The notes under the pieces: generated by a model
What the model was told of the DNA's origin: nothing
The model's input: the letters and a program-made list of their open reading frames with translations, nothing else
The model's database searches: none
Assembly: GCA_963802185.1 (NCBI GenBank)
Contig: CAWDHU010000017.1
Location: 202,612-266,611, forward strand
Direction of reading: 5' to 3'
Origin: an uncultured Bacteroidales bacterium
GTDB taxonomy: Bacteria > Bacteroidota > Bacteroidia > Bacteroidales > UBA4417
DNA: 64,000 nucleotides
Made by a program: the position numbers and the translations under genes
Part shown: positions 40,846 to 59,143 of the stretch, piece by piece
Layout: every line of letters starts with the position of its first letter
Numbering within the stretch: the first letter of the stretch is position 1

Positions 40846-43800
40846 CTAATTACTTTTTCCCGTAACAACATAAGTTGTAATAAAGCTATCGACCCAGCCG
40901 CTTTGCCTGATTAAAGCATTGAAATTCCTGGCTTTTTCGATACTCGTGAAAGTATCAGCAGTATACCTGTACAGGCCATCCTCACCTTGGTTTTCACTAA
41001 TCTTTAATCCAGGTATTCTGGAGAGCAGCAGTGCAAAATAATTGTTGATATTTATTGGCTTGCTTACAGCTAACAACTGTACTTTATATATAGTATCACT
41101 GGTGAATTGGGCCATTTTTTCGCTTTCGACCAGGATAACATTTCCATGATGAAGCGCATTGTATGGCAAAGCGATTTCCTGGCTTTTTTTGCTGAGACTC
41201 TTTTCAGAATCAGCGGGGCCTTCTATGTTGATTCCAGGTTCCTTTATTTTCTGATCTGAAACAGTCAACTGTTTTAAAGGAACATCATTATCTTGCTCTA
41301 TTCCCTGGTTTGTAAGTTTCTTCCGGAACGCTGATTCTGTTCGTCTTTCCCCTGCATATTTGGCGACAAAACTATCTTTCCAGCCACTTTTTTTGATCAT
41401 TTTCTGGTATTTAGCGGCTTCAGAAATTCCTGTAAAGGTCTTAGTGCTGTAGTGATACAATCCGTCTTCACCTAATGTTTCCTCAATGGTTAAGCCCGGA
41501 ACATCAGCGATCAAATTGGCAAAATATTTTTGGTCGTTTAACGGTCTTTTCACAGCTAATAACTGTACTTTAAACAATGTATCTTCTGCCGGAAATTCAG
41601 GGGTAGTCTTATTTATTAAATTCGGTTGGTCAATACGATGCAGAGGTGAAGGCTGGACAATTTTTTCTGAATCCCGGACTAATATTTTCATTTCCTTTTC
41701 ATGCCTTACAGAGTCTTGATTCAACAATAAACTGACAGTATCAGCGGGATATGCGATTTCACCTAAATCTTCAATTTTAATATTTTTATCCTCCGGCATT
41801 ACCTCAGGTTTTGTTTTCACTGGCTGGGTTAAAGTATAAACCAACTGAATTATCTTTTCAATTTCCAGCGGTACCATTTCTGTATTCTCTTTCAATTCTT
41901 CGGTTTTTTCTTTAACTAATCCTATATTGTCATTATTTAATGCCGAACCGATTATTAGTTCCTCATCACTATTCTGACTTTGTAATAGTTCGTTATTTAC
42001 ATCCCGCAGAATAAAATCAAGACCTCCCACTATATCACCCTGCTCCTTTGTTTTAATGGTGAATGGCAGTTCAGAGTGATCTGCCCTGAGTCCAAGGTTA
42101 TTTAACTGAACGGAATCAACACGTGCTATATATTCGCCTGGTTCAAGGCCGAGAAAATAAATATATCCATCCGATTCCGACAGGGTTTCGGCAACCACTT
42201 TATTGCTCTTTGCATCGTAAAAACTGATTGTAATCCGCCCAAGCCCCTTCAACTTTTTATCCCTACCCAAATAAACCATCCCGCTGGCTTCACCTACCGG
42301 AATAATAGGAACATCAACCCGCTTAAACTGGTTTGGATCAATTAAAACCTGGTAAATCTTTTTGGGAAAACGCCAGGCAATATTCTGAAGGTCGTTATCC
42401 TTAAACTCCAGCATATAGTTTGTAAATGCATTCAGATCATTTATCCTGATAATTGAATCCTTTTCACTGAATATTGCCTTGCCGCCCCTTGTCTTAACAG
42501 AGTTTAACATAACCATATGTTCTCCTTTGTCGAAAACGCCATTGTGGTTCAAATCTAGGTAAGGGTACAATAAGATACCACCTTTACTTACGGATGAATT
42601 GTTGCTTACATACGTATAGTTATCGCCACCAAAGGCCAGGCTGCCTTGAGCACTCTGGGAAGTAGTAACTTTATTTTTACTTTGCGAAGCCGAAATATTG
42701 GTCCGGGCAAAAGGCAGATCGTACTTAAAACTTACATTGATAAAATGGTCGTTAAACGAAAAATTTCTTTCGTATGAAACTGAAAGATATCCTTTTGGAA
42801 TTCTTTTTTCAATCTCTGCTTTGCAACTCATAAAATCTCCCTCATTTACATTAAAGCGAGCAGATGGGCGTATGACAAAACCCTTTTGCATCCTATACGA
42901 TAATGCCATATCAAGAGTGATATATGGATTACGCTGGTCTATCCAGTTAATCTGTGCCGATGCATTTGTACTAAATTGTTTGTAATAAGTAGAAAACATC
43001 AGGTTAGCCAAGTTATACTTAAACTCGCTATATTCAAGTTGCGTGTAATCCATTTTTAAAAACCCATTCACTTTTTTGTATCGCACCGGAAACGAAAGTT
43101 TTACTTTCCTTTCAACATTTGCATTGTAACGGGTAGCGAGTTGTCCTTCTACATACTTCGTATAGTTGATTTCCAGTAACACATCTTTCCTGAAATAATA
43201 ATTCAACATCCCTCCTGCCCTGACACCATAAGCATATTCGCCATTTAAAGTCAGTTTACTGAAGGGCTGTATAGTAGCTTTTACATATGGAATAAAAGGT
43301 CCATTCGAAATGGATGAGAGATATTCCAAACCTCCACCAACTGTTAACATCCTGTTTACACCATAATTTAATTCACCTTTCCCGAAGCGGCTATAGCTAC
43401 TATCCTGAACTACACCGGCAGATATACTATACTCGAACTCCTTAGCAGGCATAACTGTGTAAGGTACATTCATTGTACGTTCTTCTACACGTTCTTCACC
43501 CATCGGACCATAAAATTTTAGTTTCAGAGTAGTATAACCGTAAACGATTGGAACTTTAAAGGTATAGGCCCCTGAGGCATCAGCTTGTGTATAATTTACT
43601 AATACATCATTAATATATAGTTCCACTGTCCAGTTAGGTTCTGTAACTTCACTTATTGTATAATAACCTGAAGCTTTTCGTACCGTAGTCGGCGAATTAC
43701 GTATAACAGCACCAATTACCTGGTTATTAATAAACGAAATAGCAGGGATAGATACCTTACCAACCTGGGCTTGTTTTATAAATTTATTTTCGTTATCCAC

Positions 43801-44631
43801 CCAACGCCAGATGTAGAGCAACTGTCTGCTATCAAACTTATATTGATTATAATAATTAATGGAAACATCGGCTTCACCATACAAGAGTTCAGTGCCAAGA
43901 GCAATCCCGTAATGATTATCTGTCGATTTATTCCATGTTTGTGAAGTAGCTAGCATCCAGTCCAAAGTCCCAAACTTAAACAAGTGGTAGTTTCGTTGCA
44001 AAATTGTATCGGCAAATTCATTCCCTTGAACTTTTGCCATGTTACTCCGCATTTGATCGATACGCATCTGTTTTATCACAGGCAGTTCAAAACTGGATTT
44101 TAATGTAATAGTCATCGACCGGTAATTGAAAGCTAACGTCATTCCAAATGCTTCGGTAACAAGAGATGATTCAATATAATAGGAGCCCGACTCTTTAATC
44201 AGTCCGTTGGGCCTGTTAAATGTGTTATTGCCAATCTTCAGTTGCCCGATTGTATAATCAATAGTATAAATCTTGCTTTCATTCTCAATAAATCCGTTAA
44301 TCCGATTACCGACTGGGTTAACTGTACATGCAATGTTAAGTGTCCTGAATAAATCCTCAATATTAACATAAAGCAATTTATTATGGGTGTAAATAGCATC
44401 CAGGTAAAACATTTTATATCCTTGGACCACAACATGAACCGGGATTTCATCATAAGCGACAGGATATGCGTCATTGCCTCCATCATATATTTCACCAGCC
44501 CGGGCCTGGTTTACTGATAAAGCAAAAAGCAACAGCAAAGCAACGAAAACCTTAAATATAAAAAGCAATATACGTTGTACAATTACTATACAGTAATCCA
44601 TAACTCTACCGATGTAATTGTTTTTAGTCAT
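40846..44631 (-). CDS. usher-like outer-membrane assembly protein fused to a low-complexity linker and two C-terminal SPOR-like (peptidoglycan-binding) domains
   Basis: Signal/anchor, then ~800 aa of strand-rich sequence. A plug-like segment NWTVELYINDVLVNYTQADASGAYTFKVPIVYGYTTLKLKFYGPMGEERVEE follows the fimbrial-usher pattern (V.V..NG....T.V..G.F.I.......G.L.V.V....G). A usher-CTD-like segment reads GEASGMVYL...SESDGYIYFLGLEPGEYIARV. Two repeats, FKVQLLAV...GEDGLYHYSTKTFTGISEAAKYQKMIKKSGWKDSFV (~41355-41580) and YKVQLLAV...GEDGLYRYTADTFTSIEKARNFNALIRQSGWVDSFI (~40860-41095), fit the SPOR pattern. The start is 2 nt from the upstream stop. Confidence 0.6.
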   Translation of the reverse strand: MTKNNYIGRVMDYCIVIVQRILLFIFKVFVALLLLFALSVNQARAGEIYDGGNDAYPVAYDEIPVHVVVQGYKMFYLDAIYTHNKLLYVNIEDLFRTLNIACTVNPVGNRINGFIENESKIYTIDYTIGQLKIGNNTFNRPNGLIKESGSYYIESSLVTEAFGMTLAFNYRSMTITLKSSFELPVIKQMRIDQMRSNMAKVQGNEFADTILQRNYHLFKFGTLDWMLATSQTWNKSTDNHYGIALGTELLYGEADVSINYYNQYKFDSRQLLYIWRWVDNENKFIKQAQVGKVSIPAISFINNQVIGAVIRNSPTTVRKASGYYTISEVTEPNWTVELYINDVLVNYTQADASGAYTFKVPIVYGYTTLKLKFYGPMGEERVEERTMNVPYTVMPAKEFEYSISAGVVQDSSYSRFGKGELNYGVNRMLTVGGGLEYLSSISNGPFIPYVKATIQPFSKLTLNGEYAYGVRAGGMLNYYFRKDVLLEINYTKYVEGQLATRYNANVERKVKLSFPVRYKKVNGFLKMDYTQLEYSEFKYNLANLMFSTYYKQFSTNASAQINWIDQRNPYITLDMALSYRMQKGFVIRPSARFNVNEGDFMSCKAEIEKRIPKGYLSVSYERNFSFNDHFINVSFKYDLPFARTNISASQSKNKVTTSQSAQGSLAFGGDNYTYVSNNSSVSKGGILLYPYLDLNHNGVFDKGEHMVMLNSVKTRGGKAIFSEKDSIIRINDLNAFTNYMLEFKDNDLQNIAWRFPKKIYQVLIDPNQFKRVDVPIIPVGEASGMVYLGRDKKLKGLGRITISFYDAKSNKVVAETLSESDGYIYFLGLEPGEYIARVDSVQLNNLGLRADHSELPFTIKTKEQGDIVGGLDFILRDVNNELLQSQNSDEELIIGSALNNDNIGLVKEKTEELKENTEMVPLEIEKIIQLVYTLTQPVKTKPEVMPEDKNIKIEDLGEIAYPADTVSLLLNQDSVRHEKEMKILVRDSEKIVQPSPLHRIDQPNLINKTTPEFPAEDTLFKVQLLAVKRPLNDQKYFANLIADVPGLTIEETLGEDGLYHYSTKTFTGISEAAKYQKMIKKSGWKDSFVAKYAGERRTESAFRKKLTNQGIEQDNDVPLKQLTVSDQKIKEPGINIEGPADSEKSLSKKSQEIALPYNALHHGNVILVESEKMAQFTSDTIYKVQLLAVSKPININNYFALLLSRIPGLKISENQGEDGLYRYTADTFTSIEKARNFNALIRQSGWVDSFITTYVVTGKSN

Positions 44632-44633
44632 TC

Positions 44634-45149
44634 TTATTCCTGGTTAAAAGTAATGTCGAAACTTCCTGTATATATCCCCGGAATTGCATTTCCGGGAACA
44701 TTAAGAGTGCCACCCACACGCAATGGGGTAATAAAATTACAATCGTCATTTGTCGGAAAATTCGCATTATTTCCTCCCCTTTCGGAAGGACCAATGTCTA
44801 GCAAGAGTGTACCTCCATTACTGCCGTTTAAGATGGTTGAAAATGCAAAAGTTATCGTAACATTCCGACCCTGGCAAAGTTTTATTTCAAAAATTGCAGG
44901 CAGTGGACTATCGCCGGCAAGATATGTAATTCCTCCGGTTGATGTTCTGCTGCCATCCCATCCTACGGTAACAGTTCCACCTGACCCTGTCACGCAGAAA
45001 CTGCCGAAATTAATTGCCTGAGTAGGTGTTACGCTTAATGATCTCTGAGGTAGGACAGGCTGGGCATAAGAAAAGCTAACGTACGAAATTAAAATCGATG
45101 TTATTACCATCGCTTTTAATAATATTGTATGTATGCTAAATGCCTTCAT
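44634..45149 (-). CDS. DUF4402/SCPU-like secreted fibre subunit (minor or tip candidate)
   Basis: Type-I signal peptide (..SFSYAQP, no lipobox). INFGSF..., ...LRVGGTLNVPGNAIPGIYTGSFDITFNQE parallels the 166-aa paralogue and the spore-coat-protein-U / Csu-type subunit C-terminal pattern (G.Y.G.F.V.V.Y). Confidence 0.65.
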   Translation of the reverse strand: MKAFSIHTILLKAMVITSILISYVSFSYAQPVLPQRSLSVTPTQAINFGSFCVTGSGGTVTVGWDGSRTSTGGITYLAGDSPLPAIFEIKLCQGRNVTITFAFSTILNGSNGGTLLLDIGPSERGGNNANFPTNDDCNFITPLRVGGTLNVPGNAIPGIYTGSFDITFNQE

Positions 45150-45257
45150 TATTTTTCTTTTTATTAACTATTTTTCTTCTTTTTTTATTTCATTTTTTTC
45201 AGGCCGTTTATCATCGCTGTCAGCTCATGATCATTTTTAGCTGATGGTTTTTCTCGT

Positions 45258-46079
45258 TTAAAGAGTCAGTTCACGCTCTGTATATAAAACCGGTTTCTTT
45301 GGATTATCATTATTGATATAACTCACTTTCAGTTTTCCATTTTTAAAAACCATTCCAGTCTTTTGTTTCAACTTAACCACAACATTCCGCTTGCTAATAT
45401 TTGAAAGTACTCCTATATTCATAATTTTGCCAACCTGATACGAAGAGCCTCGCATATCAATATATTCAACTATTATATCACCATAAATTGAGATATCCCC
45501 TGTTCTATTGATTGAAACTTTGAGGTACGGCAGGGTATCGCTTTGGATTTCCAGATTTACATCACTCAGCGTAGCATTTACATTAACCTGGCCTGAGCGG
45601 ATAAGTATCGGAATACTTATTCCATAAATTGGTATTAATTGAACAGCTAATTTTGCTGTATCAATATTTTTCGTACCCAGCGGTTCGTAATTCTTTTCGG
45701 ACCGGAAGTACAGATGGGAACGATATTCGCCCGAAATCATATCAGACTTTCGCCGGCATTGAAGCATGATAATCTGCGGCTCACCAGGAGCAAGTGTTAC
45801 CTGGCGTGGAAATATCCGCAAGTAAGGATCGGCGAACATTTGACCTGAATCTGGCTGGTCGATTGTTTCGTAACTTCCATTTTCATTCATATTAAAATGA
45901 ACCAAAGAAACAGAATAAGTGGTTGTATCTTTGCCGATATTTACCAAATCCAATTCTTCAATTTGTTTGTTACCTTCAAACACAACCCGCTTTTGAGTGA
46001 TTAATAAATCGCCCTGAGCCATGGATTGAAAACTCATACTCAGCATGGGAATCAGCATGATAAAAAATATTCTTTTCAT
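45258..46079 (-). CDS. PapD-like periplasmic pilus chaperone candidate
   Basis: The likely start is the ATG at 46079, giving the signal peptide MKRIFFIMLIPMLSMSFQSMAQ. LITQKRVVFEGNKQIEELDLVNIGKDTTTYSVSL...PYLRIFPRQVTLAPGEPQIIMLQCRR...SGEYRSHLYF follows the chaperone N-domain pattern (tRvif...s..l.l.N.g......v.......f.v.PP...l.pg..q.vRi......E....l). A second beta-rich domain follows. Confidence 0.6.
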   Translation of the reverse strand: MKRIFFIMLIPMLSMSFQSMAQGDLLITQKRVVFEGNKQIEELDLVNIGKDTTTYSVSLVHFNMNENGSYETIDQPDSGQMFADPYLRIFPRQVTLAPGEPQIIMLQCRRKSDMISGEYRSHLYFRSEKNYEPLGTKNIDTAKLAVQLIPIYGISIPILIRSGQVNVNATLSDVNLEIQSDTLPYLKVSINRTGDISIYGDIIVEYIDMRGSSYQVGKIMNIGVLSNISKRNVVVKLKQKTGMVFKNGKLKVSYINNDNPKKPVLYTERELTL

Positions 46080-46141
46080 TGTTGAACTTTGTGTTGGATA
46101 CATTACAGAAATATACAATTTAGTTGCTATTTTAAGAATGG

Positions 46142-46168
46142 GGAAGGCCCTGATATGAAGGACCTTCC
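46142..46168 (-). terminator. intercistronic stem-loop just after the first subunit gene (possible partial terminator or mRNA stabiliser)
   Basis: The minus-strand RNA reads ggaaggucc-uucauauca-gggccuucc, a 9-bp stem with one G-U, 24 nt after the stop at 46192. There is no strong U-run. Confidence 0.4.
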
Positions 46169-46191
46169 GCCTTTCTTAGAATCCATATTAA

Positions 46192-46692
46192 TTAATAATT
46201 AACAGATACATCAAATGTCCCTGTATAAGTTCCGGCTACCTGATTTGCACCCACATTTAAGGTACCACCAACGGTAAAAGCATCTGCTCCGGCAGTAAGA
46301 GTACTGGAAAGTCCCCCATAAGAACAAGTCATAGCTGTAACTGTCATAGTTTGTGCAGTTGCATTAGTTATTGTAACAGCACTGGTTGGAATAGTGATAG
46401 AATATGCAGTAGTCCCTTCACCTGTAACTGCATATCCCCCTGCTGTAGGAGTACCACTTACAATTACCACACCACCAGTTTGACTCAGTGCACTTGCTGT
46501 TGTAAGAACAGCAGTTCCAGCTGTTGCCGACGCGGCCAATATACCGAAATCCATAATTGTGGGTGCTGTAATAGAAATTGGAATTTTAAGCTCAGCTTTT
46601 GCAGTATTGGACGCAGTTGATTGAGCCATAACTCTGTTTGTAAACCCTGCTATCATTACGATAGCTGCGATAATAATTAATGATTTTTTCAT
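46192..46692 (-). CDS. DUF4402/SCPU-like secreted fibre subunit (major-subunit candidate)
   Basis: Type-I signal peptide (..NRVMAQS, no Cys lipobox) and Ala/Thr/Gly-rich composition. AELKIPISITAPTIMDFGIL..., ...FTVGGTLNVGANQVAGTYTGTFDVSVNY matches my recollection of the DUF4402 consensus and the C-terminal pattern of SCPU/Csu subunits. Confidence 0.7.
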   Translation of the reverse strand: MKKSLIIIAAIVMIAGFTNRVMAQSTASNTAKAELKIPISITAPTIMDFGILAASATAGTAVLTTASALSQTGGVVIVSGTPTAGGYAVTGEGTTAYSITIPTSAVTITNATAQTMTVTAMTCSYGGLSSTLTAGADAFTVGGTLNVGANQVAGTYTGTFDVSVNY

Positions 46693-46903
46693 GATTTTTT
46701 TTGTTTTAAGTAATACTAGATTTGATTTTGTAATTGTTATTGTTTCGTGTTTTGCATATAAACAGTGTTTCCCATTACCTGGTAATAAAAAACAAAGCGG
46801 GTTGCTATGCGGCTTCCCTGGGTTCGTTTAGTCATGTCACTGTTTCCATTTTTTCAACTTTTTAAGGTTAGACTTCTTGTTTATTAGTATTTATTAGTTT
46901 TCG

Positions 46904-49900
46904 TTAGTAATTATTCTGATAAAATACTTTACGGCTGATAGAGCCTATCTGATTTCGCAACTGTACGATAAGTATTTGCGGAGGCGATTTCAGTTTAAGT
47001 GTATGCTGTGTTAAACCCTGTAATTCTTTTTTCATTAGTACGCGTCCCAGGGCATCGTATATTAAAACTGTTGTTTCATTATTAACTAAAGTAAGGTCAA
47101 TATTAAGTTGTGTTCCATCCGTATAGATTCGGGCTGGTAACTCATTAACTTTAGCTGCGATATCAGGTCCGAAATGCAGTACAAAACGGTTTATATCATC
47201 TGAAGCAGAGGAAAGAAATTTATAAGAGATTTTATCCTTAAGATTCTGAAGATAATTCATCTGACGGTCTTCAAGAAATACGCTGTTGTATTTATCAAAA
47301 GCGAAATTGCAGGTAAGTGTGTATGATCCATCCTGCCCAGACTTAAACATAACTGGAACTACCGGATTATCCTCTGTATTTGTGAGGTATCTAACGGAAT
47401 ATTTTTCATCGTCCGACGTCATATAAAGGCTCGGCGCTGTTTTTACATGACTAAATAATTTTTCGGCACCAATATCATTAGTTGCATATCCAAATTGCAA
47501 TTGCACCTCATCTGCACTGTTATCAGCCTCCGATTGTACAACTACGCTAACCACAGATGTATTGGATATTGACTTTTTAAACCAATTCCCTGCACCGTTA
47601 TGAACACGCACAGTATTATCCATACTCAAGGTACCGTCAATATCGGCCCGCACAAAGAATCCCTGCATGGAAGCAATATATTGTGTTACCGAATTGGTTC
47701 CTGTTCCGGTATATGAATTGCATACACCGTAATTTTCTGCCGTAGGGTTCCAAATCCACATATCGTAACCGCTTCCACTGCTCACCAAATCGGTTCGTGA
47801 CCAACCAGACGATGCTGCCCAGTCGATGGATGAAGGATACGGATTACCCACCAGGTTGAAGCCTTTTAAACCTGCATCTGTACTACTTATAGTCAGGCTG
47901 GCATTTACAGTCCCATTGTTCAGATTTCCCGCAAATGCTTTTATTGGATTAGCCGCCTGCGTTGAATATAGATAGCCACGACCAACCATAAAATCAGCAC
48001 CCGGATGAACCGTTGTCCAATTCACTGCAGAAGTAGTATTAAGTTTATAGATCCAGCAATTGGTTGGTTCATTCCAAAGGTATAAATCATAACCTGTGCC
48101 ATTGCCATAAGTTCCTGAAGGTAACCAGGTGCCACTAATACTCTGACCAGCCACAGGTGATGAAAGAAAATGCCAGTCTTCGTCAGCACCGCTGATATAA
48201 AGTTCGACAGTTGCAGGTACATTATCCGTAGTATGAATTAGCGATGCAGTTCCTGAGGCATCGGATTTCACTACAAATCCTGCTGCACCAGCATTGTTGG
48301 TAATTGTACCGGTCACGGTGAGTTGCCTGCCAGCTGACACTTCGAATCTTTTACCTGTATTTATTGTAAGGACACTTGTAATTGTGGTTAAAGCACCACT
48401 TAAAAGTAACACGCCCGAATTATTATCAATTGTCAGGTAGTCAAATGTTAGAGCACTTGATGCATCAATAGTCTGAGGTAATGTCCCATTAAAAGTGAAA
48501 GTATTCCCGCTTGTTACATTGAACGAACCTAAGTTTGAAAAGTTTCCTCCAATAGTATGATTGAATGAGCCAGTATTGAAAGTACTGCCTGAACCAATGT
48601 CAAAATAACCTGAAATAAGCAGCACCGCTAGTGCAGTAACGTTGGCAGTTCCTGCTACTTCAAAATCGCCTGTAATGCTGAGGGTTGAAACAGGCATTGT
48701 TTTAGTGCCGCTTCCGCTTAATGTAAGAGAACTGTACCTGTTGGTGGCAGTATTGGGGATAACTACAGTCTGGTTTGCGCCATTGTAATCAACCAGGGTT
48801 TGACCCTCACTTCCAGTATGCCACTTGCCATTGTTGGTCATGGCTCCTCCAATACGCATAACACTCCCGCTGGTCATAAATAGTTCGCTTCCAGTATTGA
48901 TGGTTACATTATAGAAATTTGTTGAACCAGAAAGAGTAGCTGCAGCATTGGTAAAAATCACGTTACTTGAGCTAGCATTAAATGTGCCTCCCGCGTTATT
49001 CCAGGCATCGTTACTACCATTAATGGTTAATTGCGCATCTGCACCTGAATTCAGAGTTCCGTTTGCTTGAATAGTTAAGGATTTTATTTCAGTTGTTGAT
49101 GGTAATGAAGGATCATTAGGAGTAGCAGAAGCATCTGGAATAATAATCTTTTTGGCACTGGATGGTCCTTCGTTCGGTGTCCAGTTTTCAATTGTTGTCC
49201 AGGAATTGGATACCGAGCCATTCCATGTGAGGGTTGTAGTAGTTCCGAACTCATCGAGTGTAATATCTTTTGTTCCATCCCAGCTTGATGAGAAAAATGC
49301 TACATTTATATTTGACAGTCGAACCCAGTTTTCGGAGGTATTGTATGCTGAACGTCCATATTCAACATTAGTAGCCAGGCCAACCCACAACACCAGGTTA
49401 TCTTCAATATTCCCATTTAGTTCCGAATCGAGGTAATGCATGGTAAATACTGCTTTTGTATTGCTTCCCCCGGTTTGAATAAGTTCAACTTCACGTTGAA
49501 TAGCTCCGGCTCTCCAGGAAGGCGCATTTCCAATACTCAGCCTCAGGCTCATTTCACTTGGCAAGGTTCCGTCGGGTGGAAAAAAAGCCGTCATATACCT
49601 GCTTCCAAAAGTATAGCTTATGTTGGCAACGATTGTTGTACGGCGAACCATACCGGTAACTTCCCCTATTCCAACCGTTGTCGCATCAGCTCCCATGGTC
49701 AGGGTTTTCATCGAAAAACCATCCCACATATCGAGGCAGCCTTTTGTAGCTGAGGGATTATTATTGTCCAGATCGAGAATTCCATTAATAGTAAAATCGC
49801 TGCTTGCAGTAATACCACCTGCGCCATCAATATCAAGGTCGTTCACAGCTGTGCTGAAAATACCTGAAGGAAGAAAAATAGCAGAGGAATTATTAAAAGT

Positions 49901-52900: not shown

Positions 52901-55882
52901 TCCGACCCAGTTCTCTGTTGTACTATTATTTGATTTGCCACGAGGATAAACATTTCCATAAGTTGGCCCTGTATAAGCATCCCAAAAAACCAGTTTTGTC
53001 TCGTCAGTTTCTGAACCATTTAATTCGCTATCCAAATAGAATAAATGGGTAATGGTTCTGTCGGTTCCAGTTCCATCCTGGGCAAAACTATAGGTTCTTT
53101 TCACTGCTCCACCTCTCCATGTTGGCGCTGAGCCGATAGCAATTTTACAACTTATCCAGGATGGCTTAACACCACCGGGGAAATCGGTGAAAACTATCGT
53201 TGTATTTTGATTTCCAAAACTATAAACAATATTCCCTGAGAAAGTATGCTGACGCTTTACAATTCCTGTCACATCTCCCGCTCCAGTAGTTGTAGCGGAC
53301 GCACCCATTGATATTGTATTTACTCCCGTGTGGAGTGCTCCCTGAGTAGCTGATGCATTGGCGCTTAGTAAATTCAAAATTCCGTAAACTGTCGCATTTC
53401 CATTCAATGTTACGCCAGTTGCACGGTTAATACTGAAATTATTCAGACCACTGGTTATGGCAGGAATAACAAGATTAGAGCCACTTCCTCCTACTAATAA
53501 ATTACTTGCCGTACCACCCACAAGAGCGCTACTGCCTGATAATGTTCCATTTAATACCAGCGAATTTGTGGAGATTGAATATGTTCCGGCCGATAAATTC
53601 ATGTCGCCGTTTACAGTAACAGTTGAAGGTGTATTTGAAGATTGCCCATCAATGACCAGGTCATCGAAATACCAGAAATCCAAACCATAAGTATAACCTG
53701 TAATGTAATACCTGATATAAAAAGTTCCTCCAACGTTGGTTGTCCAGTTTGTATAACTTAAATTATCCGGGCCTATGTTAGCAGTGCCTGTGGGAGATGA
53801 AGAATAAATATCTGTCCATGGACCGGATGAAGATGCAGCACATTGAACTTTTATGGTAAAGGGCCACGTTGTGGCATTATAGTTATCAATAAATTGTTTC
53901 CAGCTGATATTTAGTGAAGTATAACCTGTTGTATTTACTGAACGATACATAGAGGTTGTATAATTAGTTGAAGATGATGAACCATAAGCATATCGGCATT
54001 CTTTTGACGATCCACCTGCATTCGAACTTGATACAGCCGAATATTGATTATACGATGCACCCAAATCCCCTGTCCAGTTATTTAAATTATCAAATGCATC
54101 TGTAAGGATATTAACTGAAGACCCTAGATTTCCACCCTGAATAACACCTCCGGTATTAGTTGTCAGATTGTTGAGTACGCCACTTGAAATCGGCATTTCC
54201 ATACCTGTTGTTATCGGTGAACTTCCGGTATAAATTAGGTTTACATTGCCGCTAAAAATTGGAGCTGAACCCAGAGAACCCAGCGATCTCGAAATAGTTG
54301 ATCCGTTTGCCATGGTCAGGTAAGTTGAATTTACCAGAGCTCCGCTTGACAATGTCAGGGTTCCATTTACCGTAATTGCACCAAGCAGGTTTGTATTTGC
54401 ATTTACGGTAAAGTTGTTTAATCCGCTGTTGATTGATTTTACTGTATTGGCAAAATTTAATACCAGGTTTGATGAAGCACCGCCATAAAACAACGGGTCA
54501 GCTGTGTAATTAATGTTTCCGTTTAAGGTTAATGTATTCGCTCCAATCCTGAAAGATGATGTGCCTGTTCCACCGGAGAAGGTTAAATTATTAGAAATGA
54601 CCAGATTACCACCCAGAGTAACATCAGCGGTATTGAATAGCGAAATATTGTCAGCAATACGGGAGGCCGGAATTTCGAAACCTGTGCTGTAGGAAATTGA
54701 TGCTTCATCGTAGTAAAGAGATAAGCCTCCTGTGCCGACATTGAATACGGGAGCAGCATCAAGACTTCCCGCGGATGAAGTATTTCCTGACATTCCTCGC
54801 TGCACGATTGCTGAAGAAATACCGCCTGTTCCTAATGTCAGTTTGCCTGCATTAGTAACAGTACCATAAAAAAGATTTGCCCTGGCAATTACCGTATTGT
54901 TCGATCCGGCTAGTGTTAGACCCGAAGCATTTGTATTTGCCACCCCGAATGCAGAAACAGGAGCAGTAACCGTCCCGTTATTTGTAAAAGTCTGTGCATT
55001 GGCAGAAATAAATATAAAACGTGTATAATCTCCAGTTGCATCTATGGTGCCGCCCGGATTGTTTGTTACATTACCTGCCATTCTCAGCCAGGTATCTGAA
55101 GTAGTTGTCCCGGAAATCAGGGTAATGGTTCCGGTGTTGTTTATATTTCCATTTACAATTGCCGTTATTGTAGAATTGATAATCATGGGCGTGCCACTGC
55201 CTACAGTAAGATTTCCAAAGGTTGTGATTGAAGATGCCATTGTTTTAGTTCCGTTACCGGATAAACCCAGGTTCCCGTTATAATCAACATTATAAATGAT
55301 TTGAGCGGCAGACCCGGTATAATTTACTGAGCTTCCGGTTACTGTAGACAATGCAGGCGAACCGGTTAAGAAACCCATGTTCAGGGTTCCTGCATCGTCC
55401 AGGTTGATCTGGCAGCCAGTGGTTCCGGTAGTTACAGTTCCAGAAACGGTAAGAGTTCCTGTTGTGATGTTAACAATATTATTTCGCCCGCTTGATGTTG
55501 CCAACATAGTAAACGAACCGCACGTAAGATCACCGGCATTAAGATTTACTGTACAATTACGGGAGGTTGAAGGCCTTGGCATGCTTAAAAGTCCGGTGAT
55601 GGAAAGTGAATTTGTGCCGCTAAAGGTTAACGCACTGTTTGTTGTGACTCCTGCAAAAGTAAGTGAAGCACATTGAGCATTCGTGATATTTACAGTTACC
55701 GTTATTCCTGCATTAATAGTTACAGCATCAGCGGAAGTCGGAATGGCTGATCCACCCCAGGTTACAGTACTGTTCCAGTTACCGGAAACAGAAGCTGTAC
55801 GGTTTGCAGCATAACTCATCTGTATTGAGATCGAAAAAATCAATGCAGTCAAAAGAGTAATATGTAGCCTGTTTATCTTCAT
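46904..55882 (-). CDS. 2992-aa beta-helix-repeat surface protein with T9SS type-A C-terminal sorting domain
   Basis: Signal peptide MKINRLHITLLTALIFSISIQMSYA. N-terminus SGNWNSTVTWGGSAIPTSADAVTINAGITVTV, then hundreds of G/T/N/S-rich ~20-25-aa beta-strand repeats. An inserted choice-of-anchor-J/MAM-like module (FDNLNNWTGD...DFWYFDDLVIDG) lies at nt ~53645-54110. The C-terminal ...TVLIYDALGRVLMKKELQGLTQHTLKLKSPPQILIVQLRNQIGSISRKVFYQ has the T9SS CTD pattern. Confidence 0.85.
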   Translation of the reverse strand: MKINRLHITLLTALIFSISIQMSYAANRTASVSGNWNSTVTWGGSAIPTSADAVTINAGITVTVNITNAQCASLTFAGVTTNSALTFSGTNSLSITGLLSMPRPSTSRNCTVNLNAGDLTCGSFTMLATSSGRNNIVNITTGTLTVSGTVTTGTTGCQINLDDAGTLNMGFLTGSPALSTVTGSSVNYTGSAAQIIYNVDYNGNLGLSGNGTKTMASSITTFGNLTVGSGTPMIINSTITAIVNGNINNTGTITLISGTTTSDTWLRMAGNVTNNPGGTIDATGDYTRFIFISANAQTFTNNGTVTAPVSAFGVANTNASGLTLAGSNNTVIARANLFYGTVTNAGKLTLGTGGISSAIVQRGMSGNTSSAGSLDAAPVFNVGTGGLSLYYDEASISYSTGFEIPASRIADNISLFNTADVTLGGNLVISNNLTFSGGTGTSSFRIGANTLTLNGNINYTADPLFYGGASSNLVLNFANTVKSINSGLNNFTVNANTNLLGAITVNGTLTLSSGALVNSTYLTMANGSTISRSLGSLGSAPIFSGNVNLIYTGSSPITTGMEMPISSGVLNNLTTNTGGVIQGGNLGSSVNILTDAFDNLNNWTGDLGASYNQYSAVSSSNAGGSSKECRYAYGSSSSTNYTTSMYRSVNTTGYTSLNISWKQFIDNYNATTWPFTIKVQCAASSSGPWTDIYSSSPTGTANIGPDNLSYTNWTTNVGGTFYIRYYITGYTYGLDFWYFDDLVIDGQSSNTPSTVTVNGDMNLSAGTYSISTNSLVLNGTLSGSSALVGGTASNLLVGGSGSNLVIPAITSGLNNFSINRATGVTLNGNATVYGILNLLSANASATQGALHTGVNTISMGASATTTGAGDVTGIVKRQHTFSGNIVYSFGNQNTTIVFTDFPGGVKPSWISCKIAIGSAPTWRGGAVKRTYSFAQDGTGTDRTITHLFYLDSELNGSETDETKLVFWDAYTGPTYGNVYPRGKSNNSTTENWVGLTGMAINFIATSSSLDVKQWGLGYTNVPKIIWTGNGSPSFAGDWSLPGNWNGGVPTSSDDVLIPATLPGDTHGYPTRNLNTSTVPATCKTLEIETGASVTVDNYDITITGSTGAWSNSGTFNPGTGIVNFIHGNINEIVTVSGLGANQFHNINIAANTFLKPGIGFYMKIDGWITPQLSSMVDLSTAGTSVEYNGANQTVINPDGNTPGYYHLILSGSGTKTMPGTALSVIGNLTLSGTSSASVNAVLTVGGNVTMGAGNTLNLGSFSNTFSGNVTNNGGTLTSSLSSITLNGNGPQSITSTVGVSFTNFTISNTTATVTLGTSTNCSISGGLNISTGAVFNLVGNNITAITGSVTSSGTVITQSTSVTPVPAGKTWGGSFVFSGTGAQTIVAGTYNNLTISGSGGATATANITVNGILNLTSVNPSETKGILDMGSNTVLMGSTSSTVGPGDVTGIVRRTTIVPDVTYSYGNQYTTINFENFGTLPSELSLKINIGIAPAWKSGAIKRVYELIQTGAVTTHALMYAHYLDSELNGNNEENLVDWIRIIPTSTTIEYGRSANNTVQNWVSISNANIGIFYSSFGIINITLDESETTALTWNGSTSNSWVTATNWTPNAAPSAHTAITIPDAATTTFDPTIPIIATCGTLKLESGAILNSANGAQLTINDGDGAWDNQAATFNAGNSTIVFTNSLATLTGSTDFYNLTLDFGASIVMSDGTYVGVSGNLTNNGSLRTVYKGITTVEYKGGNQTVVVPNTATNRYSNLILSGTGTKTMPVTGITITKNYTVSGSTTVNAGASITFLENMTIGNGSTFNAGNFAHSVSGNFTNNGIFSVVTGGTLTMNGGSTQGISGTSSTTFDNLTINNSFWVALATNITVNGSLTLTSGDLSTGTTTIAINGTIGKTTGFINAGTGSSIVFGGTTAVTLPDNLFSVIPFINNLSINNSAGVTLGNQDMTIMGLLNLIAGTLNLGANEFTLTGSSPIRTSGTIDASNTGATLTFNNSSAIFLPSGIFSTAVNDLDIDGAGGITASSDFTINGILDLDNNNPSATKGCLDMWDGFSMKTLTMGADATTVGIGEVTGMVRRTTIVANISYTFGSRYMTAFFPPDGTLPSEMSLRLSIGNAPSWRAGAIQREVELIQTGGSNTKAVFTMHYLDSELNGNIEDNLVLWVGLATNVEYGRSAYNTSENWVRLSNINVAFFSSSWDGTKDITLDEFGTTTTLTWNGSVSNSWTTIENWTPNEGPSSAKKIIIPDASATPNDPSLPSTTEIKSLTIQANGTLNSGADAQLTINGSNDAWNNAGGTFNASSSNVIFTNAAATLSGSTNFYNVTINTGSELFMTSGSVMRIGGAMTNNGKWHTGSEGQTLVDYNGANQTVVIPNTATNRYSSLTLSGSGTKTMPVSTLSITGDFEVAGTANVTALAVLLISGYFDIGSGSTFNTGSFNHTIGGNFSNLGSFNVTSGNTFTFNGTLPQTIDASSALTFDYLTIDNNSGVLLLSGALTTITSVLTINTGKRFEVSAGRQLTVTGTITNNAGAAGFVVKSDASGTASLIHTTDNVPATVELYISGADEDWHFLSSPVAGQSISGTWLPSGTYGNGTGYDLYLWNEPTNCWIYKLNTTSAVNWTTVHPGADFMVGRGYLYSTQAANPIKAFAGNLNNGTVNASLTISSTDAGLKGFNLVGNPYPSSIDWAASSGWSRTDLVSSGSGYDMWIWNPTAENYGVCNSYTGTGTNSVTQYIASMQGFFVRADIDGTLSMDNTVRVHNGAGNWFKKSISNTSVVSVVVQSEADNSADEVQLQFGYATNDIGAEKLFSHVKTAPSLYMTSDDEKYSVRYLTNTEDNPVVPVMFKSGQDGSYTLTCNFAFDKYNSVFLEDRQMNYLQNLKDKISYKFLSSASDDINRFVLHFGPDIAAKVNELPARIYTDGTQLNIDLTLVNNETTVLIYDALGRVLMKKELQGLTQHTLKLKSPPQILIVQLRNQIGSISRKVFYQNNY
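48200..53350 (-). repeat. three diverged ~1.7-1.9 kb super-repeats inside the 2992-aa gene (beta-helix block plus ~190-aa conserved globular module)
   Basis: The conserved module A(T/E)(Q/K)G.L..G......MG....T.G.G.VTG.V.R...........Y.FG......F.......PS.......IG.AP.W..GA..R.......G........Y LDSELNG ... W.G..S.SW....NW occurs three times. The YLDSELNG codons are at ~53030, ~51305 and ~49425. Confidence 0.75.
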
Positions 55883-55988
55883 TTTTTATTTCCTACTCAA
55901 AGTCATTTCTATACATTTATCTATAAAATGGTATTTTCAATAATTTCAATAGAGTTAATGGGATTTATACGATGTGATGTGTAACAGA

Positions 55989-56387
55989 TCAGAAGTCTGT
56001 CATAGGGATTTTTTTTTCATTTTCGTTTTTCTCCAGCAATTCTTTAACCACCCTGGATACTTTCTCAAAATCATCTGTTTTGGAAAAGAAATAATCTACA
56101 CCAGCTTTAACAGCCGATTGCCTGTATGGATCAAAAGCATAAAAAGTAAGAATAATAAATTTGACATCTTTATCTACCTTCCTTATCTCTTTTAAAACTT
56201 CGAGACCGGATAATCCGGGCATTTTAAGGTCAACTATGGCCAGGTCGGGTTTCAGCGTCCGGAGGGCATACAAGGCATCTGTGCCATTTTTTAAGGCTGC
56301 CACTATTTCCACCTGATTGAAAGCGCTCAGCATTTCCTTTAACCAATCAAGAATCAAATCCGAATCATCTGCTATTATTACCCTCAT
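55989..56387 (-). CDS. single-domain (CheY-like) response-regulator receiver protein
   Basis: The likely start is the ATG at 56387 (MRVIIADDSDLILDWLKEML...); the track ORF extends to 56522 through non-homologous sequence. Receiver residues: DD, phospho-Asp in LAIVDLKMPG, ILT, and K in FFSK. Confidence 0.8.
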   Translation of the reverse strand: MRVIIADDSDLILDWLKEMLSAFNQVEIVAALKNGTDALYALRTLKPDLAIVDLKMPGLSGLEVLKEIRKVDKDVKFIILTFYAFDPYRQSAVKAGVDYFFSKTDDFEKVSRVVKELLEKNENEKKIPMTDF

Positions 56388-56462
56388 GACATTATAATTT
56401 TTGAACATGGTAAAAGTATTACCGATGCTAAAGTTTAGCTGTAAGGAATAAGGAGAAATGAA

Positions 56463-56495
56463 TGTAGGGGAATGCTTATTTGCTTGTAGGGGAAT
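56463..56495 (-). promoter_or_regulatory. 11-bp direct repeat pair spaced 22 bp centre-to-centre (candidate regulator binding site)
   Basis: tgtaggggaat occurs at 56463-56473 and again at 56485-56495. These lie 76-108 bp upstream of the receiver-gene start. Confidence 0.35.
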
Positions 56496-56511
56496 CCTGA
56501 CAAAAAAAGGT

Positions 56512-56609
56512 CCAAGGTCCAAGTCCCAAATTCAAAATTCCAAGACCTGCACTACAAGCCTTCTAGGTACTCAGGACTTGGAATTCGGGGCTTGGAATTT
56601 GAGCCTTGC
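56512..56609 (-). promoter_or_regulatory. ~100-nt palindromic ccaag/cttgg element with mutually exclusive pairings (candidate leader or attenuator structure)
   Basis: ccaagtcc (56519-26) is complementary to ggacttgg (56574-81). aaattccaag (56535-44) is complementary both to cttggaattt (56591-600) and, as a 9-mer, to cttggaatt (56577-85). An outer pair caagg/ccttg also exists. Confidence 0.4.
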
Positions 56610-56632
56610 GTCTTATAAAAACCGCAAATCAT

Positions 56633-56640
56633 CAAATATA
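56633..56640 (-). promoter_or_regulatory. candidate -7 promoter element (TATATTTG on the minus strand) just after the NarL-type gene
   Basis: The plus strand reads CAAATATA. I find no other TAnnTTTG in the spacers 55883-55988, 46693-46903, 46119-46191 or 45150-45257. Confidence 0.35.
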
Positions 56641-56657
56641 AATAAATTCAGATATCA

Positions 56658-57293
56658 CTAAATCAGGCTATTTTCAATGCAATACCTTGTCAGTTCAGTA
56701 TTTTTTGTCAGTTCCATTTTCTCCATTATTCGGCTTCGGTAGGTACTAACGGTTTTATCAGAGATAAAAAGTTCCTTACCTATTTCCTGTAAAGATTTAC
56801 CATTAGCAAGTTTTATCATGATCTCGAATTCACGTCCGGAGAGAATATCGTGTTTTTGAGCATACTTATCCTGGTTGAGGTTGAGAGCCAGGCTTTCGGC
56901 AAGAGATTGTGAAATGTATTTTCCACCTTCCGATATTTTTTTTACAGCCAATAACAATTCCTCCGATGCCGTATCTTTGGTAAGGTATCCTGAAGCACCA
57001 AGTTTAAGTGCACGTACGGCGTACTGTTCCTGTGGAAGCATGCTAAGCATCAGCACATTGGTGGCCGGCCATTTTTCCTTAATGGATTGGAGTACTTCCA
57101 GTCCACTCTTGTCGGGAAGTGAAATATCCAGAATTACTATATCAAAAACGTCCTCTTTAAAAAGCAAAAAAGCCTGGTTGCCGGTTCCGGCCTCATCTAT
57201 TGATACTTTACCCGGTAGCTGAAGCAGTATTTGCTTAAGCCCATCGCGGACAATCTTGTGATCATCACAAATAAGAATTTTTATAGGTCCCAT
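56658..57293 (-). CDS. NarL/LuxR-family DNA-binding response regulator
   Basis: Receiver domain (ILICDDHKIVRDGL...VILDISLPDKSG...LMLS...GYLTK) plus a C-terminal LuxR HTH (LSGREFEIMIKLANGKSLQEIGKELFISDKTVSTYRSRIMEKM). The start ATG overlaps the kinase stop (TAATG). Confidence 0.9.
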   Translation of the reverse strand: MGPIKILICDDHKIVRDGLKQILLQLPGKVSIDEAGTGNQAFLLFKEDVFDIVILDISLPDKSGLEVLQSIKEKWPATNVLMLSMLPQEQYAVRALKLGASGYLTKDTASEELLLAVKKISEGGKYISQSLAESLALNLNQDKYAQKHDILSGREFEIMIKLANGKSLQEIGKELFISDKTVSTYRSRIMEKMELTKNTELTRYCIENSLI

Positions 57294-59143
57294 TATAATT
57301 TGATTGGAAAAACCATCCGAATTTCAGTTCCATTTTCCTCAAGATTGCTTATTTCAAGAGTTCCGCCTAACGAGGCAGCCCTCTCTTTCATGCCAATCAG
57401 GCCAAAAGATTGCTTTGAATTAATTTCTTTCTCAGTTATGCCAACCCCGTTATCCGTAATACTGAAATGAATTTCATCACTGGTTTTGCTTAACCTGATA
57501 TCGACATTAGTTGCCCTGGAGTGCCTGGCAATATTGGTAAGAGATTCCTGCATGATTCTGAAAACGGTAAGTGAAGCATCAGGCGAAATATACAATTCCG
57601 AATCCAAATTAAGATCGAGTGAAATCTTAACTCCGAATCTTTCGGTAAACTCTTTGGTGTGCCATTCTATTGCTGCCTCAAGACCAAGATCTTCAAGAAT
57701 CTGAGGACGAAGCTGGGCGGTAAGTCTCTGAACAGTTTTTATTGTATCACTTACCAGGGCTGACACTTTATTGATTCGTACCAGTGCATCTGGGTCGGAT
57801 ACCCTTTGTCTGATTAATCCCAGGTCAATTTTAACCGCTGTAAGTGCCTGACCCAAATCATCATGCAGTTCACGTGAAATGGCAACTCTCTCATTCTCCC
57901 GTACTTTTTCAACATGCTGAGATAATTGATGTAATTGTTCAAGAGAGCTTTTTAGCTCAGCTTCAGTCTTTTTTCGTTCTGTAATATTCCGGGCAATCGA
58001 ATAGGTTTGATTCTTGTTCACCTGAGGTTGAGAGGTCCATTCCAGCCATTCTATCCCGCCATCTTTCCTGAGGTAACGGTTTTCAAAAGATAAAACGGTA
58101 ACCCCAAGTTTAAGTTTCTCATTAATAATACGAATTGTGCTTTCCAAATCATCAGGATGTATAAATTCAAGATATGGCTTACTTAATAATTCCTTACTTG
58201 AATATCCTAACATCTTTGACCATGAAGAATTAATATCACGGAAATACCCATCAATATCAGCGATTACCATCAGGTCAGCTGTTAACTCAAAGAAACTCCT
58301 GAACCTTTCTTCACTTTCCCTAAGAGCTTGTTCGGCCAGTTTGCTCTCGGTTATGTCTTTTACAAAACCAAGAAAACGTGTATCGGTCAGTTTCACAGCA
58401 TCAATTTCAATCCACCGCTTTGAACCGGTCTTATGTTTTAATAATGAACCAACTTTTATTGATCCGGTTTTTATCATTTGTTTGAAAAAAGCAATAATAT
58501 CATCAACTGACCTATCAATTAGCATATCAGACATTGACATACATAAAAGTTCGTCTTTCGAATATCCAGTTATCCGGATGGCTGCTTCATTCACTTCCAG
58601 GAATTTCCCGTTTTCATCTGTAATAAAAACTCCATCGGGTGCACTCTCAATATAACTCCTGTATTTTTCCTCACTCCGTTGAAGAGCATCATTTGCAATG
58701 GCTAATTTATTTGCAGAATCTTTCAGTAACCTTGCATCATAGATAATAGTCTGTTTCTGATTATACAAATCAATAAACACATTTATTTTACTTAAGAGGA
58801 TATGTCGGTCGACCGGTTTAAAAATATAATCGACAGCCCCTGAATTATATCCTTTCAATAATTCCATTTCATCGAAAGAATTGGCAGTCAGGAAAATAAC
58901 CGGCACTTTATCTCTTTCCGCTTCAACATTTAGTAGCTTTGCCAATTCATATCCAGTCATTATAGGCATCCACACATCAAGAATAGCCAGAGCAAGTTCC
59001 ATCCCTTTCGTTTTCTCCAGGGCTTCGGGACCATTGTATGCCTTAACCAGGTTAACTTCCAATTTGCTTATAAAAGCTTCAAGAAACAATAGATTTTCTT
59101 CGGTATCGTCAACAATGAGAATGGTGGGTAATTGTTTCTGCAT
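57293..59143 (-). CDS. hybrid sensor histidine kinase: N-terminal receiver, two PAS domains, HisKA_3 dimerisation/H-box, HATPase
   Basis: REC (ILIVDDTEENL...LAILDVWMPIMTG...IFLTA...DYIFKP). PAS1 (YIESAPDGVFITDENGKFLEVNEAAIRITGYSKDELL). PAS2 (FFELTADLMVIADIDGYFRDINSSWSKMLGYSSKELL). H-box RVAISRELHDDLGQALTAVKIDL. ATPase NIARHSRATNV...ITDNGVGI...GLIGMKERA. No transmembrane segment is evident. Confidence 0.88.
   Translation of the reverse strand: MQKQLPTILIVDDTEENLLFLEAFISKLEVNLVKAYNGPEALEKTKGMELALAILDVWMPIMTGYELAKLLNVEAERDKVPVIFLTANSFDEMELLKGYNSGAVDYIFKPVDRHILLSKINVFIDLYNQKQTIIYDARLLKDSANKLAIANDALQRSEEKYRSYIESAPDGVFITDENGKFLEVNEAAIRITGYSKDELLCMSMSDMLIDRSVDDIIAFFKQMIKTGSIKVGSLLKHKTGSKRWIEIDAVKLTDTRFLGFVKDITESKLAEQALRESEERFRSFFELTADLMVIADIDGYFRDINSSWSKMLGYSSKELLSKPYLEFIHPDDLESTIRIINEKLKLGVTVLSFENRYLRKDGGIEWLEWTSQPQVNKNQTYSIARNITERKKTEAELKSSLEQLHQLSQHVEKVRENERVAISRELHDDLGQALTAVKIDLGLIRQRVSDPDALVRINKVSALVSDTIKTVQRLTAQLRPQILEDLGLEAAIEWHTKEFTERFGVKISLDLNLDSELYISPDASLTVFRIMQESLTNIARHSRATNVDIRLSKTSDEIHFSITDNGVGITEKEINSKQSFGLIGMKERAASLGGTLEISNLEENGTEIRMVFPIKL

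Follow-up and report, generated by a model that had tools for sequence, protein, structure and literature searches.

Whether members of the Bacteroidota build surface fibres by a chaperone-usher route is the question raised by a block of eight co-directional minus-strand genes (40846-59143) in a 64,000-nucleotide stretch of DNA from an uncultured Bacteroidales bacterium, hereafter the window. To our knowledge, the established pili of this phylum are of type V, which is mechanistically different from the chaperone-usher type. Chaperone-usher pili are described as confined to Proteobacteria, except that the archaic type extends to Cyanobacteria and Deinococcus-Thermus (PMC4654587, PMC10104325). 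Literature searches combining chaperone-usher or SCPU (spore coat protein U) with Bacteroidetes or Bacteroidota returned nothing relevant, within a coverage that is incomplete.

The block probably encodes a divergent chaperone-usher-type fibre assembly system, accompanied by a co-located adhesin of the type IX secretion system (T9SS) and by a two-component regulator. It is read as a chaperone-usher-type assembly system because of the fold of its usher, the homology of its chaperone, and the conservation of its operon, which also occurs in systems with chaperones already annotated as fimbrial. The cassette at the center of this reading consists of four genes, the last of which is further divided into two regions:

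46192..46692, minus strand: subA, DUF4402 protein of 166 amino acids (aa), putative major fibre subunit (PF14352, E 2.3e-27)
45258..46079, minus strand: PapD-like periplasmic chaperone of 273 aa, divergent relative of the archaic/Csu type
44634..45149, minus strand: subB, DUF4402 protein of 171 aa with three cysteines, putative minor subunit (PF14352, E 6.1e-22)
40846..44631, minus strand: usher-like outer-membrane protein of 1,261 aa
41977..44499, minus strand: usher core, residues 45-885, with an N-terminal domain, a predicted plugged barrel of ~24 strands, and C-terminal beta-sandwich domains
40846..41976, minus strand: usher C-terminal extension, residues 886-1261, with two SPOR-type repeats

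The usher

The AlphaFold model of usher residues 45-885, calculated with 120 homologues, has a predicted local distance difference test score (pLDDT) of 83.8 and a predicted template modeling score (pTM) of 0.67. DSSP assigns to it, in order, an N-terminal mixed domain, 6 long strands, a 7-strand plug, 18 strands, and two beta-sandwiches; with strands counted from DSSP alone, the model thus contains the plugged 24-strand barrel that had been predicted for this protein. The C-terminal beta-sandwich domains of the core include a prealbumin/CarboxypepD_reg-like domain. When the model was compared with the PDB by Foldseek, the top 17 matches were all FimD or PapC structures (E 8.8e-26 to 4.7e-13, up to ~900 columns), followed by SdrD (2.5e-8, via the prealbumin domain) and by porins (~1e-6), which supports the usher identity originally proposed. 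In profile-profile comparison by hhalign, P was 3.8e-9 with archaic ushers as templates, 3.5e-8 with classical ones, and 2.5e-11 with the two sets combined; the controls lay at 0.02-0.05. The match to archaic ushers covers 505 columns, and the plug region aligns with the plug of FimD. The first hhalign runs, made with Escherichia coli K-12 proteins only, were weak (P 4.6e-4 for ushers and 0.036 for chaperones).

In the 1,261-aa protein, Pfam recognizes a SPOR domain and, weakly, a prealbumin-like stretch, and nothing else. The SPOR domain (PF05036) lies at residues 1180-1243 (40903-41094), and a second SPOR-like repeat near residues 1005-1080 was recognized by inspection of the sequence. PF05036 is present in 44 of the 120 usher homologues, and in Pseudoalteromonas the SPOR proteins are encoded on their own, to either side of the cassette. 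These repeats and separate genes suggest a conserved link to peptidoglycan that would be absent from canonical ushers. In the cassette of a Pseudoalteromonas xiamenensis plasmid (L082, 5376-11305), which has SPOR-domain genes on both sides, the usher is split into a protein of 659 aa and a CarboxypepD_reg protein of 297 aa.

The chaperone

The PapD-like chaperone pattern noticed in the 273-aa protein was borne out at the level of the family, which matches six archaic chaperones over 128 columns (hhalign P 1.4e-8, probability 95.5, control 0.62). The alignment spans the whole N-domain and places the invariant arginine of the family on Arg8 of FimC. A clear signal was obtained only when members of the proteobacterial cassettes were included in the profile and archaic chaperones were used as templates.

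These proteobacterial members were found by tblastn against plasmids, which retrieved chaperone homologues in Polaromonas (E 1e-31 and 6e-29), Sphingopyxis, Novosphingobium, and Pseudoalteromonas, annotated as "fimbria/pilus periplasmic chaperone" or "molecular chaperone". Two of them, from Polaromonas (E 1e-31) and Pseudoalteromonas (E 1e-13), clear the gathering score of PF00345, the Polaromonas protein with 25.3 bits versus a cutoff of 23. Among 30 members of the chaperone family, 12 have weak PapD_N matches and 19 have Ig-like HYDIN/VesB matches. A two-domain PapD-like chaperone is thus indicated by the profile match and by the homologues, the window protein itself having no match in Pfam, NCBIfam, or the PDB sequences. 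Searches of the PDB sequences with the single window proteins and with the chaperone-family profile gave nothing significant, and NCBIfam returned no PapD or usher match for the chaperone or the usher. The AlphaFold model of the chaperone, calculated with 30 close homologues, has a confident C-terminal beta-sandwich.

The open reading frame (ORF) would encode 286 aa from an upstream TTG, and the homologues begin at the methionine of the MKR sequence. The family comprises 2483 clusters at 90% identity; clustered at 50% identity, it numbers 2780 (E up to 1e-3), 2042 (1e-10), or 819 (1e-30).

The DUF4402 subunits

Both small proteins belong to DUF4402, with PF14352 scores of 96.7 and 79.1 bits versus a cutoff of 25.2, and the same family was recognized by Pfam in all 148 subunits sampled from related loci. 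The alternative expectation of a match to PF05229 (SCPU) failed, with 0 of the 148 subunits matching even at E up to 10. At the same limit no Fimbrial (PF00419) match was found among them, and the FimA/Mfa pilin families are missing from their Pfam matches. The DUF4402 profile retrieved no solved structure from the PDB sequences, CsuA/B included, and DUF4402 or PF14352 goes unmentioned in the literature searched, an incomplete library that leaves room for an earlier description elsewhere.

The two proteins carry signal peptides and no lipobox cysteine, as first described, and the C-terminal sequences then quoted for them match exactly. In the window subA, the signal peptide is of the Sec type, and an N-terminal extension of ~15 residues lies ahead of the Pfam domain. 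Proteins of the subA class are variable, occur in 1 to 5 copies per locus, and mostly lack cysteine. Those of the subB class are strongly conserved, usually contain three cysteines, and lie between chaperone and usher in nearly all loci.

The resemblance of the C termini to those of SCPU-type subunits was also supported. The SCPU set was assembled by using a CsuA/B sequence identical to PDB 7ZL4_A to retrieve seven archaic operons from plasmids. DUF4402 aligned to the 14 SCPU subunits with an hhalign P of 1.6e-5 (probability 79), and the proteobacterial DUF4402 set with a P of 1.3e-6 (probability 90.6), in both cases over the last 31 columns only. The reversed template gave 0.11, and block-shuffled templates scored 15.6 +/- 3.8 versus the observed 38.6, a score attained by one of the 150 shuffles. 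Relaxing the stringency gives a full-length, collinear alignment that pairs LhFG with LDFG and GxYtGtFxVTVxY with GtYtDtvxvTLxy. A distant kinship of DUF4402 with Csu-type pilins is therefore likely, as far as profiles can tell.

Gene order and distribution

Related loci were gathered by a scan of one genome per species, which yielded 71, nearly all labelled Bacteroidota. The order subA (1 to 5 copies), chaperone, subB, usher recurs in essentially all loci that extend far enough to be assessed, a recurrence that the original prediction required. Carriers are found among Bacteroidales, Lentimicrobiaceae, Prolixibacteraceae, Chitinophagaceae, Saprospiraceae, and Flavobacteriaceae. The window cassette is most closely related to that of a Bacteroidales metagenome-assembled genome, with 76% identity in the chaperone. 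Cultured carriers include Polaribacter irgensii 23-P and Polaribacter filamentus, in the latter of which the usher gene is split; for Draconibacterium orientale, the carriers are metagenome-assembled genomes only.

The cassette also occurs on plasmids of Polaromonas, Sphingopyxis, Novosphingobium, and Pseudoalteromonas, that is, in alpha-, beta-, and gammaproteobacteria. This form is simpler, consisting of 1 to 3 DUF4402 genes, a chaperone, and a "carboxypeptidase regulatory-like" protein of ~895 aa whose homology to the window usher is shown by BLASTP (7e-18 and 9e-17). The idea of a new assembly route for Bacteroidota stands as regards its chaperone-usher type and the lack of any Bacteroidota literature found, but the system is not specific to this phylum. 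What emerges is a divergent branch of chaperone-usher systems, undescribed in the literature searched and not restricted to Bacteroidota.

Two sets of loci show additional genes. In the Polaromonas plasmids, a hypothetical protein is encoded between two DUF4402 genes (L079, 5666-6283; L080, 5929-6336); the 206-aa protein of L079 has no Pfam match, and either could be a further divergent subunit. In P. filamentus (L090, GCA_002943715.1, 3834-13513), the cassette is preceded by genes for a REC-PAS-GAF kinase and a response regulator of the AraC type, its usher is distributed over three ORFs of 270, 82, and 476 aa, an Ice_binding/PTL_trimer protein is encoded between the usher and a RemZ-like protein, and a further DUF4402 gene follows.

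The large secreted protein and the remainder of the block

The ORF map reproduced the coordinates of all eight genes and the spacers of 270 bp (between the NarL and CheY genes), 106 bp, 211 bp, and 2 nucleotides (nt), exactly as first reported. Upstream of the cassette, and within it, the block contains the following features:

57293..59143, minus strand: hybrid sensor kinase of 616 aa, with REC, PAS, PAS, HisKA_3, and HATPase_c (Pfam)
56658..57293, minus strand: NarL/LuxR-type response regulator of 211 aa, with REC and GerE (Pfam)
56388..56657, minus strand: NarL-CheY spacer of 270 nt, with a TATATTTG box at 56633-56640, a long hairpin, and U7
55989..56387, minus strand: stand-alone CheY-like receiver of 132 aa (Pfam Response_reg, E 1.9e-22)
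46904..55882, minus strand: large secreted protein of 2992 aa, rich in T, G, S, and N, with a signal peptide
46904..48706, minus strand: conserved C-terminal module of the 2992-aa protein, ~600 aa, RemZ-like, with a divergent T9SS type A sorting domain
46132..46179 (about), minus strand: stem-loop after the subA stop codon, GC-rich, -25.4 kcal/mol, putative attenuator

The start of the regulator overlaps the stop of the kinase by 1 nt (TAATG), and the CheY-like ORF reaches 56522 if a TTG start is used.

The 2992-aa protein had been described as a T9SS cargo, a description supported by a profile match to RemZ that includes the type A C-terminal sorting domain. As a conserved partner of the cassette, only the C-terminal ~600 aa of the protein qualify. 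Its N-terminal ~2400 aa, for which a beta-helix fold had been suggested, are variable and match no Pfam family apart from a weak G8 match. The conserved module is 50-72% identical to its homologues, which elsewhere are mostly stand-alone proteins of 560-645 aa. The module profile matches RemZ (PDB 8GL8_D) with an E of 1.8e-23 over module positions 233-594, reaching the C terminus. The last ~360 residues of the protein are accordingly homologous to RemZ residues 714-1111, including the conserved type A lysine, and the assignment to T9SS type A comes through this match. RemZ is a type A substrate of the T9SS whose C-terminal domain was observed bound in the translocon (PMC10994853). Two homologues (L060 and L061) clear PF18962 (Por_Secre_tail) with 30.8 and 29.8 bits versus 27; the window copy is below threshold (Por_Secre_tail 14.5 bits; NCBIfam type C 18.9 versus 40). 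The first ~230 residues of the module (48007-48706, minus strand) lie outside the RemZ match and have no Pfam match; they are highly conserved, with motifs such as GFVLxSDATGTASLIHN and WHFLSSPV.

For analysis of neighborhoods, 18 loci were taken as informative, namely those in which each flank measures 5 kb or more. The module adjoins or interrupts the cassette in 14 of these. Over all loci, it was placed upstream 27 times, downstream 6 times, and within the cassette 5 times. It lies between chaperone and subB in L060-L062 and L065, and in L014 the module and the usher stop share 4 nt. A RemZ-like module is likewise associated with the cassette of P. filamentus.

Regulators, hairpins, and promoters

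The stem-loop noticed after the first subunit gene is real and finds a counterpart in other genomes: the spacer behind subA contains a hairpin of -15 kcal/mol or lower in 81% of 62 loci, compared with 24% for the chaperone-subB spacer. Its position is conserved across loci, its stem sequence is not. This pattern is as expected from differential expression of a major pilin, and the stem-loop is a putative attenuator setting the ratio of subunit to machinery.

The 270-bp spacer is structured, as had been stated, to a moderate degree (fold z = -2.48). The box near its start, 18 nt past the NarL stop and the only TAnnTTTG element of the spacer, is followed by a long imperfect hairpin and U7, which together are probably the terminator of the kinase-regulator pair, or possibly an attenuator or a leader. 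As first noted, the minus strand has no TAnnTTTG element in the spacers below 56633, and the later minus-strand matches all fall within coding sequence. This absence says little, because the motif occurs in the window at chance frequency (76 versus 73.7 expected); scans for sigma-70 promoters and terminators gave results at or below chance and were not used. The single long transcript initially proposed may exist, but the hairpin behind subA and the terminator-like hairpin between the NarL and CheY genes favor modulated transcription over uniform read-through.

Genes for a kinase or a LuxR-type regulator adjoin the cassette in 9 of the 18 informative loci, and LuxR-type regulators flank the Polaromonas cassette too. 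A stand-alone CheY-like receiver is also present at L021, L023, and L027.

Surroundings of the block

Housekeeping genes flank the block on both sides and give it the appearance of a discrete, insert-like unit. They encode 2-oxoacid:ferredoxin oxidoreductase subunits, a convergent acyl carrier protein (ACP) phosphodiesterase, citrate synthase, and isocitrate dehydrogenase. The citrate synthase gene (59393-60722, minus strand) is present as two overlapping ORFs (59393-59929 and 59745-60722), each with a partial PF00285 match, a split attributable to a frameshift, a pseudogene, or a sequencing error.

The window also encodes, at 8191-15363 (plus strand), another T9SS cargo of very large size, 2390 aa, which contains 11 Ig_7 domains, PKD domains, SprB repeats, and a CHU_C (type B) sorting domain. 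The G+C content of this region is 0.45-0.49, versus ~0.38 around it, and a 275-aa Ig_7 ORF just upstream (7320-8147, plus strand) may belong to the same gene. The gene is bracketed by two paralogous outer-membrane proteins (4376-6127 and 15590-17110, both minus strand) that have an outer-membrane beta-barrel, thrombospondin type 3 repeats, and an OmpA domain. A complete rRNA operon (16S, tRNA-Ile, tRNA-Ala, 23S, 5S) lies at 21585-26794 (plus strand). Between its tRNA-Ala and 23S genes, ARAGORN calls a tRNA with a four-base anticodon (23521-23594) that Rfam does not report and that is probably a false positive. The cargo with SprB repeats and CHU_C and the rRNA operon fit a T9SS-bearing member of the Bacteroidota.

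Proposed mechanism and alternative explanations

The assembly system proposed here would work as follows. Both DUF4402 proteins would be exported by Sec and captured in the periplasm by the PapD-like chaperone, which would pass them to the 1,261-aa usher, with its predicted plugged barrel of ~24 strands and its N- and C-terminal periplasmic domains. The C-terminal SPOR domains, an unusual feature, may tether the usher to peptidoglycan. At the usher the subunits would polymerize, the N-terminal extension of each completing the fold of its neighbor by donor-strand exchange, in analogy to Csu and CupE. SubA is taken as the major subunit because its class is variable and multi-copy in other genomes and an attenuating hairpin lies behind it. 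SubB is taken as the minor subunit, which would start, tip, or end the fibre, because it is highly conserved, contains cysteines, and is encoded directly before the usher. The RemZ/RemA-like T9SS type A adhesin module, fused to the 2400-aa extension, would probably be co-regulated with the cassette via the REC-PAS kinase, the NarL-type regulator, and the CheY-like receiver. We infer the donor-strand exchange, the fibre itself, the roles of subA and subB, the anchoring to peptidoglycan by SPOR, the co-transcription, the regulation, and any functional link to the T9SS adhesin; the domain and fold identities, the homologies, the conserved gene order, and the hairpin are shown by the analysis.

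Several observations weigh against this reading. PF00577, expected on the 1,261-aa protein, is not matched by it, nor by its homologues in Polaromonas and Sphingopyxis. PF00345 and PF02753, likewise expected on the chaperone, are absent from it. Against classical E. coli chaperones alone, the chaperone family scored no better than the control (P 0.022 versus 0.029), and the position of FimC Lys112 is occupied by proline. The N-domain of the chaperone model has a pLDDT below 50, and its Foldseek result is uninformative. For the subunits, the brevity of the SCPU match counts on the same side, and the incomplete immunoglobulin (Ig) fold and donor strand remain putative. No two-domain tip adhesin is encoded, the gene after the window usher being a convergent, unrelated ACP phosphodiesterase. 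The split usher of P. filamentus means either that the system is dispensable there or that the assembly contains errors. Lastly, the system is known here from genes and models, from which fibre formation is presumed.

The block could instead encode an archaic pilus of the ordinary sigma (Csu/CupE) type, with proteins that narrowly miss the Pfam thresholds; it would then be one more member of an established family and no variant in its own right. The chaperone is indeed nearer to archaic than to classical chaperones (P 1.4e-8 versus 0.022), the usher matches archaic ushers over its 505 columns, the subunit motif GxYxGTFxVTVxY resembles the GTYTDTVTVTLxY of SCPU, and the order of subunits, chaperone, and usher resembles that of csu operons. 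None of the marks of the archaic sigma family, namely PF05229 subunits, a PF00577 usher, and an SCPU tip adhesin after the usher, was found, however. All 148 subunits fail to match PF05229 at the relaxed limit given above, the DUF4402 profile misses CsuA/B in the PDB, the usher never matches PF00577, a subunit gene stands between chaperone and usher, and no CsuE-like two-domain adhesin follows the usher. The CarboxypepD_reg-like and SPOR end of the usher is not annotated in the fetched sigma operons, and annotation sets the proteobacterial DUF4402 cassettes apart from the fetched SCPU operons as a different kind. We consider an ordinary archaic pilus unlikely. The reading as a type V pilus was rejected, given the lack of a lipobox cysteine and of any FimA/Mfa match.

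Other alternatives concern the product. Chaperone-usher products that are not pili are known, such as the Caf1 F1 capsule (FGL systems) and SCPU in the Myxococcus spore coat. The exported DUF4402 proteins might likewise form a polyadhesin layer, amorphous or resembling a capsule, or a sheath, or be secreted as monomers or oligomers, as the missing tip adhesin gene and the up to five subA paralogues per locus would allow; a conserved minor subunit and an attenuator behind subA are typical of heteropolymeric pili, yet compatible with such products too. We regard this outcome as quite improbable. We judge equally improbable that the cassette and the RemZ-like T9SS protein form a composite organelle, in which the module would be the adhesin of the fibre or the fibre an anchor or track. 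In conservation the module is on a par with chaperone and usher (50-72% identity); it adjoins the cassette in 14 of the 18 informative loci, lies inside it at L060-L062 and L065, and overlaps the usher by 4 nt at L014; moreover, a CsuE-like tip adhesin is missing, and Polaribacter has an extra DUF4402 gene behind the module. Yet the proteobacterial cassettes lack the module, as do 4 of the 18 informative Bacteroidota loci, a search of the large protein detected no DUF4402 or pilin-like domain in it, and adjacency may mean co-regulation of two independent adhesins. In its boldest form, the fibre of a peptidoglycan-anchored usher would carry, anchor, or guide an adhesin delivered by the T9SS, the two being halves of one organelle; we hold this to be rather unlikely. 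If true, the composite organelle would be the first surface structure built by two outer-membrane export pathways together, in a phylum not known to use the chaperone-usher route.

If the preferred reading of a divergent chaperone-usher-type system is true, the known range of such systems would be widened by ~2000 chaperone clusters (50% identity) to groups of Bacteroidota and some Proteobacteria. DUF4402 would gain a function, and many annotations such as "hypothetical", "SPOR domain", and "carboxypeptidase regulatory-like" would become usher calls. Two features are raised by the locus, an usher that may be tethered to peptidoglycan and a genetic coupling to a T9SS adhesin, and the cultured carriers make experiments possible.

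Comparison with known systems

With the type V pili (FimA/Mfa), the system has in common the phylum and, as proposed here, a surface fibre assembled through strand exchange. Type V pilins are made as lipoprotein precursors and polymerize after proteolysis, with no chaperone or usher. The window subunits, in contrast, have no lipobox cysteine and are accompanied by both a chaperone and an usher.

The large protein resembles RemA and RemZ of Flavobacterium johnsoniae (RemZ is Fjoh_0803, PDB 8GL8) in its C-terminal ~360 residues. It differs from RemZ in the N-terminal ~230 residues of the module and in the 2400-aa extension rich in threonine, glycine, serine, and asparagine, which are without detectable relative. 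The RemZ paper makes no mention of a linkage to chaperone-usher genes (PMC10994853).

From the classical type 1 (FimC/FimD) and P (PapD/PapC) pili, the system differs in an usher of ~10% sequence identity, a chaperone match that is not significant, proline at the Lys112 position, and subunits unrelated in sequence to the PF00419 fimbrial proteins. The usher model nevertheless superposes on the classical ushers over 700-900 columns, its plug is inserted past the sixth barrel strand as in theirs, and the equivalent of chaperone Arg8 is conserved.

The window system would work like the archaic (sigma) systems Csu of Acinetobacter baumannii and CupE of Pseudomonas aeruginosa. Unlike these, the window system has subunits of PF14352 and not PF05229, an usher that PF00577 does not recognize and that bears CarboxypepD_reg-like and SPOR domains (the fetched sigma operons being compared by annotation only), and a conserved subunit gene between chaperone and usher; it also lacks the two-domain tip adhesin, has a T9SS partner protein, and occurs in Bacteroidota. 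The features held in common are the chaperone, whose closest class is the archaic one, the plugged-barrel usher, secreted subunits of small size that have an N-terminal extension, the LxFG motif, and, at the C terminus, a strand of the form G-x-Y-x-[DG]-T-x-x-V-T-V-x-[YF], and the position of subunit genes ahead of those for chaperone and usher.

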